Assembly (NCBI GenBank): GCA_963810005.1
Contig: CAWELY010000011.1
Location: forward strand, 122,458-186,457
Length of the DNA stretch: 64,000 bases
From: an uncultured Acidobacteriota bacterium
GTDB taxonomy: Bacteria > Acidobacteriota > Terriglobia > UBA7540
Direction of reading: 5' to 3'
The notes beneath the pieces were generated by a model. That model searched no databases, was not told where the DNA came from, and saw only the letters and a list, made by a program, of their open reading frames with translations. The translations under genes and the position numbers were made by a program. Shown piece after piece: positions 1 to 9,974 of the stretch; position 1 is the first letter of the stretch; each line of letters starts with the position of its first letter.

Positions 1-152
1 CGTTCCTCCGGCGACAAACGGTTCTTTACGGCAGGTAGCCCCGTCCCTTCCACTACCGCAAGAACATATTCTTCCACGCTCATTCCGTTCGCCTGCGCCT
101 GGGCCAGTAGCCCGGCTTCAACCTCCGGCTTGAACTTCAGAGTCACCATCAT
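1..152 (-). CDS. small antitoxin-like protein, N-terminal part (gene runs off the window start)
   Basis: ATGATG at 152-147 preceded by GGAGAG. Translation MMVTLKFKPEVEAGLLAQAQANGMSVEEYVLAVVEG... looks like a short antitoxin-type protein and lies in a TA-rich region. Too short in the window for the ORF track. Confidence 0.3.
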   Translation of the reverse strand, partial: MMVTLKFKPEVEAGLLAQAQANGMSVEEYVLAVVEGTGLPAVKNRLSPEE

Positions 153-252
153 GGGTTCTCTCCATCCCTAAACCCTGATATTACCCTATCGCGAGAGGCC
201 GGGTTTGTCTACGGGAAATCACGTTGGGACACAGACATAAGAACTGGTCGCC

Positions 253-275
253 ACGGACAGTGCTTTCCTGTCCGT
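253..275. repeat. hairpin ACGGACAG-N7-CTGTCCGT (CACGGNCAG family)
   Basis: Perfect 8-bp stem read directly. Same stem design as 396-422, 1185-1211 and the 64-bp tandem units. Confidence 0.6.
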
Positions 276-391
276 AGGCTTTTCTCAGGCGCGATATCCC
301 AAGGGCAATCTTAGGTAATCAATCATGCTCAAAGGCCTTCAAGCACCCGCGACGGCAGCTACAATTGACCGGGAGTTTCGCATCGAGGGAG

Positions 392-472
392 AAGCCCACG
401 GACAGGAAAGCGCTGTGCGTGGCTAGCAGCTTGGGTCCGAGACATCAAACCCCATGTCTGCGCCGCCCGCGT
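392..472. repeat. two-module intergenic repeat (CACGGNCAG hairpin module plus GACATCAAACCCCATGTC module)
   Basis: Both modules recur at 1140-1214 with their order swapped. Module 441-472 matches 1140-1171 with two mismatches. Confidence 0.6.
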
Positions 473-527
473 GTGCGGTCACGATTTCCTTGTGGTTCAA
501 CAGAGCCCGAGGTAAGATATTCTTACT

Positions 528-935
528 ATGGAATTGAAGCTTTCTACGAAGGGCCAGATCGTTCTAGCCGGGGCCATTCGCCGCCGACTCGGCCTCCAAC
601 CCGGCGACTCGCTCGACGCCAAAGTGCAAGCCGGGCGCGTCGTGTTGACGCCGCGGAAAACGCGCTTCTCCAAGGCGACCCTGCGCGTTGACCCCCTAAC
701 CGGTCTCCCGGTTCTCAGCGCTGGGGTGGGCGCGCCGCGTTTCAGCAGCAAGCAGGTTCGCGGGATTTTGGCGGAATTTCCATTCGCATCTCCCCCGTTG
801 GGTCAAGACCGCGAAACAGACCACGGACGGCCACCTGGCGCAACTCGCCAGCGCCAACAGCGCAGTGCTGGCAACGCTGGACAGGGGGATTCCGCGAGCA
901 TTTCTGATCCCCGTACGAGGATTATAATGTCTTGA
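528..935 (+). CDS. AbrB/MazE/SpoVT-type (VapB-like) antitoxin; the ORF reads on into a degraded toxin region
   Basis: The N-terminus MELKLSTKGQIVLAGAIRRRLGLQPGDSLDAKVQAGRVVLTP is the SpoVT/AbrB swapped-hairpin motif. The antitoxin-like part ends near 780 and the rest of the ORF has no recognisable similarity. Confidence 0.6.
   Translation: MELKLSTKGQIVLAGAIRRRLGLQPGDSLDAKVQAGRVVLTPRKTRFSKATLRVDPLTGLPVLSAGVGAPRFSSKQVRGILAEFPFASPPLGQDRETDHGRPPGATRQRQQRSAGNAGQGDSASISDPRTRIIMS
814..927 (+). pseudogene. C-terminal remnant of a PIN-domain VapC toxin
   Basis: An alternative frame gives KQTTDGHLAQLASANSAVLATLDRGIPRAFLIPVRGL*. This is a typical VapC C-terminus (TD.HLA.LA...ATLDR.F). No N-terminal PIN part is present. 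Confidence 0.45.
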
Positions 936-1139
936 TAGGGGGAGCGGGCTCCCCTTCCACTGCCCCCGCACTCTCGGCCCGTATCCGGGCCTTTCTGACC
1001 TCGGACTCCGGTCTTGTTCTGCTCTTGAATTTTGAATCTGCCATCCGCAATCCCCCAGCCCCTAACCCCTAAGCCCTGCTCTTCTCGGCTGCCGTGCACC
1101 CTTGGGCGCGAGAGGTCGCAACGCGGGGCTTGTGACGCA

Positions 1140-1214
1140 GACATCAAACCCCATGTCCGCGCCACCCGCGGGCATGAGAAAAGCCCACGGTCAGGACTGC
1201 GCTGACCGTGGCTA
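1140..1214. repeat. second copy of the two-module repeat (order inverted relative to 392-472)
   Basis: GACATCAAACCCCATGTCCGCGCCACCCGCG, followed by AAGCCCACGGTCAGGACTGCGCTGACCGTGGCTA containing a perfect 10-bp stem. Confidence 0.6.
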
Positions 1215-1519
1215 CGCCGCTTTCAATCGCTTCGGAGGCCGATCCGGCAGCGACCAAAATTCGCTTGATTTCCGCCCGCCAAGCCACACCAACTGCGATT
1301 CGCCATTACGGGGAGAGTCTTTGAAGGACCAGCTATCGGAAGACGACAGGATTCCAGCGGAGATCGGCTTCCGGAAAGGGGTCCGGGGTTTTCACCACAT
1401 TCCGCCTGACGCTACTTGCTCTTAGCGCCACACCGGAGGTGGGGAATAAATCACCACCACCGGCGTGGCGCCATTTCGACTCTGTCCGCCGCGATATCCT
1501 CCCCTGTTTGGGCCCAGGT

Positions 1520-2147
1520 TCAGAGCACGTCAGTGATAGGTGTATTCACGGTAATGCGCTTCGCTTTGACTTGGCCGGTGAGGTGGACGAGGTTGTTGCC
1601 GCTTGGGTCGTACTGGTCAAGCGTAAATGTCCCCACATAGCTGTTGTGGTCGGGGCTCAGGGTGATCACTTCGCGGATATTGCCAGGCCCCAGCAAAGTC
1701 TCGTCGGGGTTCCAACTTATCGTGAAATGATTGAGTTTGTACTGGGATGGACTGGTTTTCTCCCACACTCCCAGGCAGAAGCTTTGGGTGGCAGGCGCCC
1801 GCGATGAATTGAGGATTTCTGTTCCATCGCTGTGCCACTGGGAAAATCCCGCATCGAGCACCGTGCCGTCGGGTATGCCAGCATTACCCTCGGAGATGAG
1901 GTCCACCCTCCAGAAACCCACGATCATATCTTGGTCGGGCGTCTGGCGATGCTTCCGTATCGCCGTAAGCGGCTAACTTGAACAACGCTGGACTAAACTC
2001 ACCGGTCCAGGACTGGTTTCGCAGCTTAGATGCGCCCCGTTTGGACACGCCCACATTCATGCATTGGGCATTCGCCAACGAGGCGAAAACTGTCGCGAGG
2101 ATAGCTACTCCGAGGGTCGCCTTCAACGCTCCGAACATTGTTTTCAT
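1520..2147 (-). pseudogene. secreted hypothetical protein, one frameshift near 1930-1960
   Basis: AAGGAGA then ATG at 2147. Signal peptide MKTMFGALKATLGVAILATVFASLANA (ORF 1884-2204) continues in ORF 1520-1927 after a 1-nt shift (..TPDQDMIVGFWRVDLISEGNAG..). Confidence 0.5.
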
Positions 2148-2457
2148 AAGATTCTCCTTTTTTGTTGGCCTGGATCTCTCCTGTTGGCATTCCCGAATCA
2201 ACACGGGATGGCATGCTGGGAACAGGATTGCATCTCCTGGCCTCTATTCAAATTCGCGGCGGTCATTCATTCGGGTCTGTCCTGCTCCCGTTGCCTGGCT
2301 CGCTCGCGTGGGGTGGACTATGAGCCGATTGAGAAAGTGCTTCAGCGGAATCGATTATCCCCACGCAATTTCCTCTAAACAGGTGAGTTAGGGCCAAATA
2401 TCCCCCAGCAGGATTTCGTATTGATTCTGAAATCATGGAGTGTTAGATTTAGTTGGA

Positions 2458-4397
2458 ATGGGTGGTCGCCCCTCCGTGGAACAAGTCAGCAGCTCGGTAG
2501 AGGTCATCCGGTTCGGTGTCTTTGAGGCGGATACTCGCACGGGCGAGCTGCGCAAGCACGGCCTGCGAATCAAGCTTCAGGAACAGCCGTTTCAGGTTCT
2601 GTCCCTGCTACTCGCCCGGCCGGGCGAACTGGTCACACGCGAGGAGCTGCCGAAGCTCTGGCCTGCGGACACTTTCGTGGACTTCGAGCAGGGCCTGAAC
2701 AAAGCCATCAATAAACTACGAGAAGCCCTCTGCGACGACCGGGAGACGCCGCGCTATATCGAAACCTTGCCGCGACGTGGCTATCGCTTTATCGGCCCGG
2801 CTATCAGCGCCCAGCCGCCATCGGAGCCAGGTGGCCCCCCGGCGGTGTTGGTGGCTCAGCCTGATCCCGTTGTAACCGACAAGCCTTGGACGGCCCGCTG
2901 GAAGACGCCCGCCATATTCCTTTTGCTGGGGGTGCTGGCCCTCGTAGTTTCGGCGCTCTGGTATAGCTTGACCCGCAGGCAGGTTTCTCCGGCCGCGGCT
3001 ACGGCCCCCGCGGCGCCGATCCGCTCGCTGGCCGTCCTGCCGCTCCAGAATCTATCCGGCGATAATGACCAGGAGTACTTCGCGGAAGGAATGACCGAAG
3101 AACTAATCACCGACCTCGGACAGATGAGCGCCTTGCGCGTGATCTCCCGTACCTCCGTCATGCAGTACAAGGGAACCGCCAAGACGCTGCCGCAAATCGG
3201 GCGGGAACTGGGCGCCGACGCCATCGTGGAGGGCGCCGTTTTCCGCTCGGGCAGCCGGGTGCGCATCACCGCCCAACTGATCGATGCCCGAACCGACCAC
3301 CACCTCTGGGCGCATGCGTACGAGCGCGACCTGCGGGATGTGCTGATTTTGCAGGACGAAGTGGCGCGCGATATCGCGAATGGAATTCGATTCGAGCTGA
3401 CGCCCCAGGAGCGAGCGCGCCTGACGGGTTCTCACCCTGTCAACCCGGAGGCGCACGAAGCCTACCTCAAGGGCCGCTATTACTGGAATCAGTTCACCGA
3501 GGCAGATGTGAGGAAGAGTCTCGGATTCTTCCAGCAAGCGATCGAAAAGGACCCGAACTATGCCCTGGGCTATTCCGGCTTGGCCGATTACTACGATGTG
3601 ATGTACGGCGGCATGAGCGCGCTGCCTCGTAACGAAGCGTGTTCGAAAGCGGAGCCTGCCGCGCTCAAAGCCGTCGAGCTTGACGATTCGCTTGCCGAAA
3701 CTCACACCGCTTGGGTTCCAGGTCCGATTTTTCTGCGACTGGGATTGGCAGGGCGCCGAGAGCGAATTCAAACGGGCCATCCAGCTCAATCCGAGCTATT
3801 CTTTGGCGCACCGCATTTACGCCACCTTTTGACATGCTAGCGGCCGAGCAGGGGAAGCCATGGGCGAAATAGATCGGGCGGTGGAAAACGATCCGATGTC
3901 GGCCGACCTTTACTTTGCGCTCGGAAGGCGCTATTACGAGACGCGGCAATACGACCAAGCTCTCCAGCAATACCAGAAGGCGCTCGAAATGGATCCGAAG
4001 CGGGCTAATCCTCACTACGGCTTCGGTGATGTATACGCCCAGCAGGGGCGGTATAACCTGGCGATCCGGGAGTTTCGGAAGGGCCTCGAGCTTTCCGGCA
4101 GGGAGCCTGCGGCGTCACCCGAGCTGGGCTATGTGTATGCCCTCGCAGGGAGACGACCGGAGGCGCTGGAGATACTAAAGCAATTGAACGAGATGTCCAA
4201 ACATCGGCCGGTCTCGGCACTCGATCGGGCGTTTGTTTATATAGGTTTGGGTAATAAAGAGCAAGCCCTCGCGTTACTCGACAAGGCGTATGAGCAGCAC
4301 GAGTTGGGGATGATTTATTCTGAAATCGGAGCCGCGGTACGATCCCCTCCGCTCGGATCCGCGCTTCCAGGATTTAATGCGGCGTGTGGGTCTCTGA
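2458..4397 (+). pseudogene. CadC/OmpR-type winged-helix transcriptional regulator with TM segment, TolB-like region and TPR repeats; two frameshifts and one in-frame TGA
   Basis: N-terminus VIRFGVFEADTRTGELRKHGLRIKLQEQPFQVLSLLL..LWPADTFVDFEQGLNKAINKLREAL, followed by a TM helix. The TPR part continues through ORF 3860-4459. Frame breaks lie near 3715 and 4320, with a TGA at 3829-3831 (YATF*). The restored C-terminus is EPRYDPLRSDPRFQDLMRRVGL*. Confidence 0.75.
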
Positions 4398-4485
4398 GCT
4401 GGGGCCCGGGGCCCGACAGCAGGGATAGATGCTCCTACAGGCGCAGAGCCGGTTGTTGAATGCTCGGGAAGCAGCGGGCACCGCG

Positions 4486-4744
4486 GAGGTGGGCGTACTT
4501 GGCCCTCCTCCGCGGCACTGGATCGGGAAATGACCGCTGGGGGACGCGGGTGCAAGGCCTGTCTTTGGGAGTGCGGCGACTCGTCGCCGCTTTTGCTCGC
4601 CGCGACTCGTCGCGGCGAACCTTTGCACCGGTGACGAGTCACCGGCGGCAAAAAGCGGGACCGAGTTCCCGCACTCCGAAAGCGACGCCACCGGTCAGAG
4701 CACCCGCGTTTGATGGCCATGCGAAAGCCGCTACGGACACGGGG
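4486..4744. repeat. 259-bp composite structured repeat, copy A
   Basis: Collinear with 6667-6925 at a constant offset of 2181 nt, with no indels and few mismatches. It holds internal palindromes (GGCGACTCGTCGCC, GGTGACGAGTCACC) and an outer complementary pair ACGCGGGTGC / GCACCCGCGT. Confidence 0.85.
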
Positions 4745-4804
4745 CGAATAGACGAGCCGAAGACGAAGGCAAACAACGCCTACATCTGCGTTACCCCCTC
4801 TTAG

Positions 4805-5131
4805 TCAGGCAGTCGCTCGACGGCAGGAGGGGACGAAGACAATCTTCACCTCTCGGCCTAAGGCTGTGGCGATTCGCCGGAGCATCGAAAGGGAATGCCC
4901 TTCGTAATCAGCATCCTCAAGGCGGCAAATGACGGAAGCGGTGGTTCCCACCTTGGCGGCGAGTTGGCGTTGGCTAAGACCCGAGCGGCTGCGGAGCTTG
5001 TAGATCTGGCTGGCGACATCCGCCGCGGAGAGATCGTCCTCGAACGCCGCACGTAACTCCTGGTCCGCGCCCACGTAACGGCCATACGCAAACTGCAAAG
5101 CTGGTGAGTTGAATTGCCGCTTCTTTTTCAT
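4805..5131 (-). CDS. higA: XRE-family HTH antitoxin (HigA-like)
   Basis: 108-aa ORF with an HTH region (LRSRSGLSQRQLAAKVGTTASVICRLED). It starts 3 nt after the stop of the upstream RelE/HigB-like gene. Confidence 0.75.
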   Translation of the reverse strand: MKKKRQFNSPALQFAYGRYVGADQELRAAFEDDLSAADVASQIYKLRSRSGLSQRQLAAKVGTTASVICRLEDADYEGHSLSMLRRIATALGREVKIVFVPSCRRATA

Positions 5132-5134
5132 CTG

Positions 5135-5509
5135 TTACCTCCCTGGCTTAAAGGTGTGAGCAGCCGGATTCAGCTCGAAAGTGGACTTGGCTCGGATAGC
5201 CTTGTCGATCTCCTGTTTGGGCACTTCCCGTTCCTTCGCCAGACCGTGCGTCACAACTACGGCTTTCCCTCCATGAAAAAAGTACAGCATCCGGTAGTGA
5301 ACTCCCTGGTAGCTCGCCCGCAACTCGTAGATTCCATCGCGGAGGAAATCCGCCTCGGGACGCCGAAGTTCGTGCCCCAAGTCCTCCAGCCGCTTGAGCC
5401 GCACCAGGCATTTAACCCGCGCCTTGGGCGAAAGGGCATCCAGCCACTCGATCAGCCATGGCATTTTGCCCCGCGCGTCCTGGTAGAAGATAAGCTCAAC
5501 TGCCGGCAT
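5135..5509 (-). CDS. higB: RelE/ParE-superfamily toxin (HigB / Gp49-like)
   Basis: Internal ATG at 5509 gives MPAVELIFYQDARGKMPWLIEWLDALSPKARVKCLVRLKRLEDLGHELRRPEADFLRDGIYELR..HYRMLYFFHGGKAVVVTHGLAKE. The toxin-first gene order is typical of HigBA. Confidence 0.75.
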   Translation of the reverse strand: MPAVELIFYQDARGKMPWLIEWLDALSPKARVKCLVRLKRLEDLGHELRRPEADFLRDGIYELRASYQGVHYRMLYFFHGGKAVVVTHGLAKEREVPKQEIDKAIRAKSTFELNPAAHTFKPGR

Positions 5510-5614
5510 ATCAACCCCGGCGATGTTCGCATAATTGCGAACGAAAGTCAACCCGGCCTTTCGCCGCCCAAAAAGAAAAGATTCACCACAGAGGTGCAGA
5601 GAGCACGGACCAAG

Positions 5615-5820
5615 CGGCGCCACTAAATCGGGAAATGACCGCTGGGGGACGCGGGTGCAGGGCCTATCATGGGCGGGATGGGGTGTGGCACCGGCACTCT
5701 TGCCTGTGTCCAATGTGTGGAAGGCATCCGCCTTGGGCACAGGCAAGAGTGCCTGTGCCACCACGCTACCGACAGAGCCCCGCGTTTGATGGCCAGGCGA
5801 AAGCCGCTCCGTACACGGGG
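5615..5820. repeat. composite repeat, copy B (same flanks as A/C, different hairpin core)
   Basis: Shares ATCGGGAAATGACCGCTGGGGGACGCGGGTGCA.GGCCT and CCCGCGTTTGATGGCCA.GCGAAAGCCGCT..ACACGGGG with copies A and C. The core is replaced by the inverted repeat GGCACTCTTGCCTGTG / CACAGGCAAGAGTGCC. Confidence 0.7.
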
Positions 5821-5921
5821 CCGGATGACGAGCCGCGGACGACGTTGGGCCGAACGGCGTTCGGCCATGGCCCAGCGCCTCTGGGCCCTACGCGGCGGGT
5901 TGCGGTTCTGCCGCGTACCGG

Positions 5922-6350
5922 CTATGGGGCAAGCAGGCCCTCTGCTTTCGCCAGTTTTCTTTGTTTCTCGTCGAACGTGTAGAAAGTCTCAGTACGCAGG
6001 ACCAAAGCGGAGGCGACATGCAAGACCTCGAGGGAACGTGTGCCCAGGCGCCGAGTGTGCTTTTCCGCCAGGCGTCTGGCCTCATCAAATGCCCCCGGGG
6101 GTAAAGGGCGAAGCACAATGACCCCGTTCGCCATATCCTCCCGGAAGAGTTTTTGCGCAGCCTTCACTTTGGAATGATCAAGCTCTTTCCGAAAAAGCCG
6201 GAGCTGGAAGGCATTGGTGATCTCGATCTCGCCCAGGGGGCTCAGCGAGAGCGGCAGGGCGGCACGTTTCATCTGTGCCGCCGCGAGGGCGGAGTTCCCG
6301 TCGAGAACGTAAAGGGAGACGAGGAAACTTGTATCGGCGTAGGCGCTCAA
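5922..6350 (-). CDS. vapC: PIN-domain ribonuclease toxin VapC
   Basis: 142-aa ORF. MSAYADTSFLVSLYVLD.. carries the N-terminal acidic PIN motif, and the C-terminus is TFYTFDEKQRKLA. It overlaps the upstream antitoxin by 4 nt. Confidence 0.85.
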   Translation of the reverse strand: MSAYADTSFLVSLYVLDGNSALAAAQMKRAALPLSLSPLGEIEITNAFQLRLFRKELDHSKVKAAQKLFREDMANGVIVLRPLPPGAFDEARRLAEKHTRRLGTRSLEVLHVASALVLRTETFYTFDEKQRKLAKAEGLLAP

Positions 6351-6598
6351 GATCTGCCACGCTCGCGGGCAATAAGCTCAGCTCCAGAAACCTTGAGGGG
6401 TGTCTTCCCATATACCGCCTGCAAGCGATTGAGAAAATCCGGCCGTCGCGGAGGAGGCGCAGGCGGGCAGGGCATGAGCTTCGCAATCACCCGCCTCCGT
6501 TTGGTAATCTGAATTTCCTCACCCTCCCGAAGCAGGTTCTCGACCTCCCGAAAACGATAGCGCAGATCGCGCACGGTGGCTTTTTTCATGTGATGCAT
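6347..6598 (-). CDS. Phd/YefM-type antitoxin paired with VapC
   Basis: MHHMKKATVRDLRYRFREVENLLREGEEIQITKRRRVIAKLMP. Only the last 83 codons of track ORF 6347-6901 are used, because the upstream part of that ORF is repeat copy C. Confidence 0.7.
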   Translation of the reverse strand: MHHMKKATVRDLRYRFREVENLLREGEEIQITKRRRVIAKLMPCPPAPPPRRPDFLNRLQAVYGKTPLKVSGAELIARERGRS

Positions 6599-6666
6599 TA
6601 TAGCATCACAACCGGTCACAGATAAGTTTTCTTTTGTAAACACCCTTGCGGCGCAGAGCAGGTGGC

Positions 6667-6925
6667 GAGGTGGGCGTACTTGGCCCTCCTCCGCGGCACT
6701 GGATCGGGAAATGACCGCTGGGGGACGCGGGTGCAAGGCCTGTCTTTGGGAGTGCGGCGACTCGTCGCCGCTTTTGCTCGCCGCGACTCGTCGCGGCGAA
6801 CCTTTGCACCGGTGACGAGTCACCGGCTGCAAAAAGCGGGACCGAGTTCCCGCACTCCGAAAGCGACGCCACCGATCAGAGCACTGGCGTTGGAGGGCCA
6901 TGCGAAGGCCGCTACGGACACGGGG
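6667..6925. repeat. 259-bp composite structured repeat, copy C
   Basis: Near-identical to 4486-4744, diverging only in the last ~60 nt. Confidence 0.85.
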
Positions 6926-6975
6926 CCAGGTGACGAGCCGGGGAGGACGCCAAAGTACGTCCGCCTCCGCGCTGC

Positions 6976-7569
6976 CTACTGCCTACTGCCTTCTACCAAT
7001 CGTTCGTAAGCTGCCGGGTCGTCCACATCGAGGAGAATGCCGGGGTCGGTGACTTCCACAAATTGTGTCGCGTTGCGATATTTGCGGATGACCGTGTTGG
7101 CGGGTTCTTCGGGAGGGAGCGCCAGCAGCTCGGGAAACAAACTCTGGCGGATGACCACGGGGTGGCCGCGCTCGCCTTTATAGGTGGGAATCAGGACCGG
7201 CGGGCGAGTCGATTCGAAACTCTCACTTAATTTCGTAATAACTTCGCTGGAGATGGCGGGATGGTCGACAAGGCAGAGAATTACGGCTTCCGGCAAATCG
7301 GTGGCCACCGCCGCCAGCCCCCGTTGCAGTGAAGATGTTTGACCGCGCTGGTAATGGTGGTTGACCACGACGCGCACGGCCTCGAGGTTCACCGCGCCTC
7401 GGATGGTTTCCGCGTGATGGCCCAACACCACCGTGACCTTCGCGACCCCGGCGGCGCCAAGCGCATCAATAATGTTTTCCAGGAAGGTGCGCCCGTGGTA
7501 GGCGAGCAGGGCCTTGTCGCGCCCCATGCGCCGGGACTGGCCCGCGGCGAGAATCAGGCCGGCCATCAT
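6976..7569 (-). CDS. MobA/MocA-like nucleotidyltransferase (molybdenum cofactor cytidylyltransferase family)
   Basis: Starts at ATGATG 7569: MMAGLILAAGQSRRMGRDKALL... carries the LAAGxSxRMG motif. The start overlaps the xdhC stop (ATGA). Confidence 0.75.
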   Translation of the reverse strand: MMAGLILAAGQSRRMGRDKALLAYHGRTFLENIIDALGAAGVAKVTVVLGHHAETIRGAVNLEAVRVVVNHHYQRGQTSSLQRGLAAVATDLPEAVILCLVDHPAISSEVITKLSESFESTRPPVLIPTYKGERGHPVVIRQSLFPELLALPPEEPANTVIRKYRNATQFVEVTDPGILLDVDDPAAYERLVEGSRQ

Positions 7570-8387
7570 GGGGTGTGCTGGACTTTCGGTTTGTACGCCA
7601 GGGAGGGAACGTTGGGCGCGGTGTTGCGCCGCACCGCAATCATCTCCGCCACGATGGCCACCGCGATTTCTTCTGGCGTGAGCGCGCCGATATCGAGCCC
7701 GATCGGCGAATGCACGCGCTCGATGCGCTCCGCCGGCACGCCTTCGCGCTCCAGGACCTTGCAAATCTCGATGAACTTGCGCTTGCTGCCGATCATCCCG
7801 AGGTAGCGCGCCGGCGTGGTGACGGCCCAGCGCAGACAATCGAGGTCGCCTTTGTGGCCGCGCGTTACCAGGACCAGGTAGGAGTGGTCGTTCACGTTGA
7901 TCTTGGGGAATACCTCTTCCCACGGCCCGGCGAAGGTCTCGGAGGCTTCGGGAAAGCGTTCTTTGTTGGCAAAGGCTTCGCGATCGTCAGCCACCACCAC
8001 GTCAAAACCCGCAATTTTCGCCACTTTTGCCACCTGCAGGCCCACGTGCCCGCCGCCCAGAATGAACGCCGTGGGCGTGGCCAGAATGGGCTCAACGAAA
8101 ATGTCGAGCGAGCCGCCGCAGATCAGCCCGTTGTCATACTCGGGGTTGGCGTTCAGATTGAAGTGCAGGCGCCGGGGCTTCTCCTCGCGCATCACCTCCT
8201 GCGCCACCGACCACACTTCCGCTTCCACGCAGCCGCCGCCCACCGTGCCGGCAATCGAGCCATCGTCGCGAATCAGAATCTTGGAGCTTTCGTGGCTGGG
8301 GATCGATCCCTGCACCTCGACAATGGTGGCCAGCGCGCCCTTGCGCCCCGCCTTCCGCAGCCGAACGATTTCTTCAAAAATGTCCAT
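7566..8387 (-). CDS. xdhC: XdhC/CoxI-family molybdoenzyme maturation protein
   Basis: 273-aa intact ORF. GALATIVEVQGSIPSHESSKILIRDDGSIAGTVGGGCVE plus a Rossmann-like part FILGGGHVG..VVVADDRE. Confidence 0.85.
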   Translation of the reverse strand: MDIFEEIVRLRKAGRKGALATIVEVQGSIPSHESSKILIRDDGSIAGTVGGGCVEAEVWSVAQEVMREEKPRRLHFNLNANPEYDNGLICGGSLDIFVEPILATPTAFILGGGHVGLQVAKVAKIAGFDVVVADDREAFANKERFPEASETFAGPWEEVFPKINVNDHSYLVLVTRGHKGDLDCLRWAVTTPARYLGMIGSKRKFIEICKVLEREGVPAERIERVHSPIGLDIGALTPEEIAVAIVAEMIAVRRNTAPNVPSLAYKPKVQHTP

Positions 8388-9606: not shown

Positions 9607-9713
9607 CCGCGATTTCTGACTGCGCTGGGACGCATTCGGGGAACTGCCGCAAGGCCCGTCCCGACTTGTGGAAACGGGCTACGGAAAAACGCTTTACGGC
9701 GGGCATTCGGTGC

Positions 9714-9852
9714 GAAGCTTTGGAGTGCGGCAGCTTGCTGCCGCTTTGTCCCCAGCCCGCTTGCTGGCGGGGAATTGTGCGCTCGGATGGTTTTCCCGTG
9801 AGCAAGCTCGCGGGCAGAAAAGCGGCAGCAAGCTGCCGCACTCCAAAGCTTC
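9714..9852. repeat. long palindromic element (arms GAAGCTTTGGAGTGCGGCAGCTTGCTGCCGCTTT / AAAGCGGCAGCAAGCTGCCGCACTCCAAAGCTTC)
   Basis: Near-perfect ~34-nt inverted arms around a ~70-nt spacer, read directly. It shares the GAGTGCGG-N10-CCGCTTT design with the core of repeats A and C. Confidence 0.7.
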
Positions 9853-9974
9853 GCGCGACCCTATTGGCGCTTGCCGTCCGCCCAACGAGTTTTTCCGCCG
9901 CGGGGGAAGCACACAAGAAAGCTGTGGGCGAATGAAGCTCTGGTGTATGATCCATTTCCCCCTAGGTTCTTCGC

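Follow-up and report, generated by a model that had tools for sequence, protein, structure and literature searches.

How does an array of toxin-antitoxin (TA) operons, each bracketed by the same repeat in the same orientation, come to be assembled beside a conserved gene? The question is raised by the region next to mocA in the window, our name for the whole stretch of 64,000 nucleotides analyzed here (G000:C11:122458-186457). G000, the assembly under study, is a metagenome-assembled genome (MAG) of an uncultured Acidobacteriota bacterium with 73% completeness (7.0 Mb, 44 contigs, 59% G+C). An earlier note on this stretch had seen a cassette-like layout, and had likened it to a cassette array or to the repeated targeting of one repeat family by TA modules. 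The cassette-array layout proves genuine: the repeats are uniformly oriented, n cassettes come with n + 1 repeats, and cassettes are shuffled between arrays. The repeat is a genus-specific mosaic intergenic element, the middle of which is a hot spot for other palindromes (M1, M2 and others) that resemble repetitive extragenic palindromes (REPs). Our tentative answer is that homologous recombination between the repeats builds the arrays.

The array at the mocA locus

The repeat search of the window gives a direct pair of 300 nt (4486-4785 and 6667-6966, 93% identity), an L arm in three copies (4512-4568, 5617-5673 and 6693-6749; identity 88-100%) and an R arm in three copies (4703-4766, 5779-5842 and 6884-6947; identity 81-84%). 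Together with the Pfam scan of the window open reading frames (ORFs), by which the genes were identified, it defines three plus-strand repeats, A, B and C, that surround HigBA and Phd-VapC and so bracket each operon. The order that had been read on the minus strand (mocA, repeat C, Phd-VapC, repeat B, HigB-HigA, repeat A) is exact. Each repeat has an L and an R module around a variable middle, which is M1 in both A and C and M2 in B; L0 and R0 are terminal hairpins. The features are the following.

4483-4785, plus: repeat A, with L0 REP hairpin (4483-4518), L module (4512-4563), nested M1 palindromic insert (4564-4688), R module (4689-4745, or to 4766) and a degenerate R0 remnant up to 4785
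4805-5131, minus: HigA-like helix-turn-helix antitoxin, 108 aa (Pfam HTH_37/HTH_31/HTH_3)
5135-5512, minus: HigB-like toxin of the Gp49/DUF891 family, 125 aa (Pfam PF05973, E 8e-22)
5526-5541, no strand assigned: perfect palindrome TTCGCATAATTGCGAA, just upstream of higB
5617-5842, plus: repeat B, with L (5617-5673), M2 hairpin insert (~5674-5765) and R (~5766-5842)
5922-6350, minus: VapC-like PIN toxin, 142 aa (Pfam PF01850, E 9e-7)
6347-6598, minus: Phd/YefM-like antitoxin (Pfam ORF 6347-6592; ATG at 6589 or 6598), a weak match to PF02604 (E 0.003) below the curated cut-off
6590-6609: palindrome GTGATGCATTATAGCATCAC, overlapping the start of the Phd/YefM-like gene
6667-6966, plus: repeat C, with L0 (6667-6699), L (6693-6744), M1 insert, R (6870-6927, or to 6947) and R0 hairpin to 6966
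6976-7572, minus: mocA-like nucleotidyltransferase of the MobA family (Pfam PF12804, E 4.5e-39), start approximate, as the listed ORF (6976-7923) is over-extended

By adjacency and family domains, the HigBA and Phd/VapC pairs are predicted to be type II TA modules, the Phd match being sub-threshold. The DNA of the HigA-like antitoxin (4805-5131) is ~93% identical in another array, L046, where the palindrome TTCGCATAATTGCGAA is also kept with the cassette. This palindrome is likely the own operator of the HigBA cassette, and that at 6590-6609 likely the operator of Phd-VapC. Repeat B is without an L0 hairpin, and more REP-like hairpins follow it up to ~5915.

Related arrays in the genome and the genus

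G000 holds 14 copies of the L module at seven loci: three on contig C11 (this locus), four on C28, two each on C6 and C18, and single copies on C3, C36 and C30. Between the repeats are found the HigBA and Phd/VapC cassettes on C11, a HEC-01 candidate defence pair (AAA_21 + DUF4276), a PIN cassette and a TacA/GNAT cassette on C28, and PIN cassettes on C6 and C18. The single copy on C30 has a PIN pair (seen by eye), and the broken single copies on C3 and C36 lie beside insertion sequence (IS) elements. The earlier note had proposed a genome-wide mapping as a check for TA enrichment, and the enrichment is there: 11 of the 14 copies (four of the seven loci, or five counting the PIN pair of C30) lie at most 1.5 kb from TA- or defence-like genes. 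As ~3% of G000 lies within 1.5 kb of such loci, P is ~3e-5, a rough value because the TA background set was found using the cassette proteins themselves. The association is seen across the genus as well.

Within the genus, 19 of 24 sampled genomes have the core of the repeat (~12 of them clearly); the 16 genomes examined from other genera of the order and class all lack it. A pattern scan of GTDB species genomes returned 16 stretches, every one of them in a peat or soil MAG that is labelled Terriglobia or Acidobacteriota; the scan of Joint Genome Institute (JGI) metagenomes added 72 contigs with the core. A phage origin of the repeat was rejected, with 0 matches to either arm in viral contigs.

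Adjacent repeats are co-oriented in 45 of 45 intervals of the genome loci and in 81 of 81 of the metagenome contigs (126 of 126 together), counts that include orthologous arrays and hence stand for fewer independent cases. Their spacing has its mode at 750-1000 nt, which is the size of a TA operon. The arrays are closed by a repeat at both ends, so that n cassettes have n + 1 repeats: three for two on C11, four for three on C28, and two for one on both C6 and C18. A parse into mobile insertion cassettes (unit R-R0-genes-L0-L) was rejected because each array has n + 1 complete repeats. Relative to the L-to-R direction, the cassette genes are antisense in about three of every four cases and sense in the remainder; the repeat is thus not a fixed part of a transcription unit. 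At the seven loci the orientation of the repeat is mixed with respect to local GC skew, with no consistent relation, so that co-orientation belongs to the array itself and is not set by the replication strand.

Pfam assigns the 47 non-redundant cassette ORFs mostly to small TA-type families: nine PIN, three PIN_3 and one PIN_2 (with possible overlap among them) and four ParE, the others being HepT, MNT, HigB, TacA, GNAT, Phd, HNH, AAA_21/DUF4276, antitoxin-like proteins and one hydrolase. The AAA_21 + DUF4276 cassette is the PADLOC candidate HEC-01. At G000:C28:3004-4850, and also in L048 and L066, it encodes a 401-aa AAA_21/AAA_15 ATPase and a 214-aa DUF4276 protein that match HEC-01 with E 1e-99 and 6e-60. 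Between two species this cassette is 98% identical, and the flanking core genes are 89-95% identical. The PIN cassette on the same contig (G000:C28:5260-6520) is 99.5% identical to the metagenome copy L073:1026-2284. Two 1-nt indels separate them, through which the upstream gene of 214 aa falls into pieces of 146 and 60 aa in G000 and the PIN toxin is read in a shifted frame (144 vs 150 aa). The toxin of G000 is probably inactivated.

A core conserved as sequence, with nested palindromes

The anatomy of the repeat is based on the 14 copies of G000 and ~190 more from relatives and metagenomes. The core comprises a 52-nt L module, the variable middle and a 58-nt R module, and measures 137 nt in its short form. 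L and R are kept at the sequence level (85-90% across species), and ten bases of L (ACGCGGGTGC) are able to pair with R (GCACCCGCGT). In 47 units the middle is a short hairpin of 40 nt; the M2 palindrome takes its place in another 47 and the compound palindrome M1 in 30, and the other units have one of several rarer forms. M1 and M2 are separate repeat families, with 39 and 105 matches in G000. Elsewhere in the window, a palindromic element of 143 nt (9712-9854) has arms ~80% identical to the M1 insert of repeats A and C. This relationship indicates that M1 is an independent REP-like family nested into the repeat.

Most units are capped by the ~35-nt hairpins L0 and R0, which are mutual reverse complements and start with GTAG (GGTAGCGCGGAGG...). 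L0 reads (G)GTAGCGCGGAGGTGGGCGTACTTGGCCCTCCTCCGCGG, and R0, as its reverse complement, ends in GCGCTACC. The caps are therefore inverted, GTAG-headed imperfect palindromes, as in REPs and bacterial interspersed mosaic elements (BIMEs). A GTAG head is the tag of REPs that belong with REP-associated tyrosine transposases (RAYTs) (PMC3733652). Some units are without L0 and R0, or have other REP types in their place. Truncation points differ widely among the copies, above all in R. Two truncated copies end exactly at the 5' edge of the L/R pairing, and this is the main hint of a preferred site.

The description of the repeat as structured does not extend to its conserved core. On both strands the core folds with no excess stability over dinucleotide shuffles (z -0.05 to -1.24), so the structure belongs to the nested REP hairpins and the core itself is conserved as sequence. 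RNAalifold on 35 copies with the middle removed gives 12 pairs with a covariation term of +0.14 and a compensatory change in one pair; about a third of the copies in this alignment have an uncompensated C-to-G change in the L/R pairing. Rfam scans, by gathering threshold and by E-value, return nothing but chance microRNA-like hairpins on the M2 palindrome. Invariant stretches of the core are unpaired, among them GGGAAATGACCGC and GATGGCCA.GCGAAAGCCGC. A coding reading was tried and rejected: the middle inserts add 71 or 98 nt, so that frames differ between middle types and, as these lengths are not multiples of three, no ORF is preserved. Six-frame tblastn of G000 gave no related gene end for the repeat, a search that bears as well on the idea of such repeats as displaced 3' ends of a serine recombinase gene.

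Cassettes are shuffled without their repeats

For the comparison of arrays, inter-repeat intervals were labelled by DNA cluster. Cassette gain, loss and shuffling, which the earlier note had suggested looking for between strains, are all seen. The HigBA cassette has different neighbors in nearly every array that holds it, the Phd/VapC cassette occurs in about four contexts, and the TacAT, ParE and PIN cassettes are likewise varied. One slot reads (flank)/HEC-01/(flank) in several contigs, TacAT/PIN/HEC-01/(flank) in G000 and MNT/HEC-01 in G008.

The repeat follows none of these moves. Among cassettes with differing partners, the middle type is constant with the neighboring cassette in 1 of 11 on one side and in 1 of 15 on the other. 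Repeats that lie beside a common cassette and have a different far neighbor are 84% identical in L and 82-84% in R, against a random-pair background of 84% and 81%. Cassettes that are 96-99.5% identical in two arrays are yet flanked by repeats of only ~83-88% identity. In an integron each cassette carries its own site; here the middle type and the L/R variants follow neither neighbor.

About six independent recent exchanges could be resolved. The points at which identity drops from ~99% to ~85% lie, relative to L, at -37 (before L0), at -2 (the L0/L border) and after L in the middle; relative to R they lie at +17 (inside R, in the pairing arm), +51 (near the end of R) and +102 (after R0). Recent exchanges broke at points spread over the repeat and not at a fixed one, which favors homologous recombination between portable repeats. 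The junctions also vary between copies of one cassette, some having REP hairpins that others lack, and L or R being cut at differing points. Because cassette-repeat junctions are not fixed, the alternative of one repeat family repeatedly targeted by TA modules is not favored.

Integron parts and recombinases

An integron-type system is unsupported by our searches. IntI (TIGR02249) is absent at the cut-off from six genomes of the genus (G000, G001, G005, G015, G017 and G021, with completeness of 96% for G005 and 92% for G015), where the best matches are XerC/D-like and score 108-116 bits versus the cut-off of 265. A pattern scan of four arrays for attC boxes (R'' RYYYAAC and R' GTTRRRY, 50-160 nt apart) gives 0-2 pairs per strand, none of them stem-complementary; GTTGGAT is present in some R modules, without a partner box. 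The cassettes moreover carry their own putative promoter/operator palindromes and lie in either orientation, which further argues against an integron.

The neighborhood of other repeat copies, where the earlier note had proposed looking for recombinases, yields none that recurs among 447 clustered flank ORFs from ~100 loci (Pfam on the recurrent ones). The recurrent families are TPR (tetratricopeptide repeat) proteins, a NotI-like nuclease, a TIR protein and a glycosyltransferase. G000 has many tyrosine recombinases. These include ~12 near-identical gene pairs (361 aa + 527 aa; for example C1:114628-116111 and C6:240489-241972), which suggest a mobile element present in multiple copies and borne by its recombinases. 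The C6 array has, 1.4 kb upstream, a large serine recombinase pseudogene with a stop codon in frame, and after it part of a group II intron reverse transcriptase (G000:C6:85800-89004). No other array has this pseudogene beside it, and its relatives on C12 (79%) and C38 lie away from any repeat copy.

The accessory island at the mocA site

mocA is a core gene conserved in the genus (27 of 29 genomes have its region), and its 3' intergenic region is an insertion hot spot. In G000 this site is occupied by one island.

G000:C11:121135-129429 (window part 1-6972), no strand assigned: accessory island of 8.3 kb, which begins 1.3 kb before the window

In three relatives that have both flanks (G005, G006 and G042), 120-400 nt separate mocA from its conserved neighbor (in G000 at C11:119350-121135), and in G006 the ~400 nt at the mocA 3' region are other REP-like elements. 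G017 has ~7.7 kb of other DNA at the site, versus the 8.3 kb of G000. None of 16 fetched relatives has the core repeat after mocA. The right border of the island is the end of the R0 hairpin of repeat C, which abuts a (CTGCCTA)n heptamer run (window 6967-6985) common to relatives (L051-L053); no target-site duplication is seen at the island border. Degraded TA pieces had been proposed for positions 1-1430. Matches of this kind do exist there, to a MazE/AbrB-like ORF (528-935, E 2e-4) and a FitA-like ribbon-helix-helix fragment (3-152, E 0.003), but both fall below the cut-offs and support the proposal weakly. The same 1430 positions contain other REP-type inverted repeats (244-429 and 1169-1215) and no copy of the core repeat.

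How the arrays may be built

Co-orientation, the n + 1 pattern, shuffling, scattered change points, ragged copies and the lack of a linked recombinase are best fit by portable homology, in which general recombination between repeats loops cassettes out and inserts them at other copies. We hold this reading with some reserve, at a little short of an even chance. The repeat would provide homology at the borders of small self-contained cassettes, mostly type II TA operons and some defence pairs. RecA-type recombination between direct copies would loop the cassettes out, and the same process would integrate or replace them at any other copy, within the genome or after DNA uptake from kin. Arrays of one orientation, with n + 1 repeats for n cassettes and a reshuffled order, would be the outcome. 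TA modules would predominate because genes between 0.2-kb direct repeats are easily deleted and addiction modules penalize their own loss. Such punishment of loss from cassette arrays is described for the TA modules of Vibrio superintegrons (PMC13108822), and DNA uptake from kin feeds the cassette arrays of Vibrio, there through IntI (PMC12614218).

Several points weigh against portable homology. Homology alone does not require the sequence of the core to be conserved, and the conserved stretches may bind a protein. Some constraint on structure is suggested by a few compensatory changes in the 10-bp L/R pairing. The recent exchanges that can be dated number only about six, and their junctions are blurred by later REP insertions and deletions. 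Only four or five of the ~62 TA-like loci in G000 bear the repeat. RecA recombination is itself inferred and not observed, and the model does not explain how a new site (for example the mocA 3' region) acquires its first repeat copy.

The complete co-orientation (126 of 126), the n + 1 pattern and the combinatorial shuffling are also what a dedicated, integron-like system would produce, with an unlinked recombinase (tyrosine, serine or HUH) that recognizes the core, excises circular cassettes of one repeat each and re-inserts them at other cores. The strong conservation of unpaired core parts, the two conserved arms around a variable center, the pairing between them with its few compensatory changes, the two truncated copies that break exactly at the 5' edge of this pairing and the many tyrosine recombinases of G000 would all suit it. 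We consider it unlikely, as no recombinase recurs beside the arrays, IntI and attC boxes are missing from the six genomes and four arrays scanned, recent break points are scattered and truncation positions varied (mainly in R), and neither the repeat nor its middle travels with the cassette, unlike attC. In its most specific form, the 137-nt core would be the site of an undescribed, integron-independent cassette system of Terriglobia, whose unlinked recombinase captures and reshuffles TA and defence cassettes at many chromosomal sites, with the scattered break points as secondary homologous events; this too we regard as improbable. Doubtful to a similar degree is an origin as a non-autonomous element, of the type of miniature inverted-repeat transposable elements (MITEs) or REPINs (pairs of inverted REPs), mobilized in trans and inserted between pre-existing TA operons in fast-changing islands, the cassette look being a by-product. 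The ~35-nt inverted terminal hairpins with their GTAG head, typical of RAYT-associated REPs, agree with such an element, as do the nested REP families (39 and 105 genome matches for M1 and M2), the IS elements that adjoin solo and broken copies on C3 and C36 and the restriction to one genus. Independent insertions, however, are expected in both orientations, whereas 0 of 126 neighboring pairs are opposed and orientation is untied to GC skew. The copies number just 14, with 11 at TA/defence genes and thousands of other intergenic regions free of the repeat; both ends of an array are always closed by a repeat, and no target-site duplication is seen at the island border.

REP-type hairpins act on mRNA 3' ends, and roughly three in four cassettes have the repeat at the 3' end of their operon. 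Both facts would accord with a cis-acting element (a terminator or insulator, a 3' structure that stabilizes mRNA, or a small RNA gene) selected beside each TA operon. But no Rfam family is matched, the covariation term is close to zero with one compensatory pair in 35 sequences, the folding energy of the core equals that of shuffles, about a quarter of the cassettes face the opposite way at varying gene distance, and no ORF is kept. A cis-RNA role is poorly supported, and we give the cis-acting explanation very little chance.

Gene-cassette arrays are usually equated with integrons, and here an abundant soil and peat lineage builds them without integron parts. If homologous recombination at portable repeats suffices, this is a simple and probably widespread route for the build-up of addiction and defence modules, and the portable-homology reading, if true, explains by selection why the arrays are full of TA modules. 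Should a dedicated recombinase be at work in its place, the arrays would represent a new cassette-capture system.

Comparison with known systems

We found no prior description of this array system in the literature searched. In outcome the array system is like a sedentary chromosomal integron, yet it has neither IntI nor attC boxes nor a site that stays with its cassette. With sedentary chromosomal integrons and clusters of attC sites lacking integron integrases (CALINs), such as the Vibrio cholerae superintegron with its attC of the V. cholerae repeat (VCR) type, it shares arrays of small cassettes, same-orientation sites that separate single cassettes, and a taxon-specific, co-oriented repeat with conserved arms and a variable center. 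Promoter-bearing TA cassettes are strongly enriched in both, defence cassettes occur in both, and the order differs between strains. Unlike in integrons, there is no IntI in the genus (six genomes) and no R''/R' box, the core is not a foldable imperfect palindrome, the repeat is not tied to one cassette and the crossover is not fixed. Where integrons have one attI/Pc platform, several short arrays (1-6 cassettes) here occupy scattered core-gene sites.

The BIME, REP and REPIN elements of Proteobacteria (PMC3733652) resemble the single repeat: they too are extragenic mosaics in which inverted hairpins with a GTAG head surround a conserved non-palindromic motif, and several palindrome families are nested in them. 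They differ in that the core here has ~14 copies per genome, is tied to TA/defence cassettes and is strictly co-oriented in arrays.

On Acinetobacter plasmids, pdif (XerC/D) modules are small modules, often TA pairs, that lie between short sites of 28 bp in alternating orientation. The arrays described here likewise consist of small modules, often TA, bounded by a repeated site and found in many contexts; their repeat units are 140-300 nt long and direct, with no dif-like site recognized.

In Neisseria, minimal mobile elements are alternative cassettes swapped at fixed slots by homologous recombination via conserved flanks or repeats, without a dedicated recombinase. Slot-wise exchange of cassettes by homology is thus common to both systems. 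Neisseria minimal mobile elements and the NIME (neisserial intergenic mosaic element)-dRS3 repeats are mentioned in PMC1797815. There the homology lies mostly in flanking core genes, whereas in the arrays of this genus a dedicated 0.2-kb repeat stands between the cassettes, and their cargo is almost entirely TA modules.

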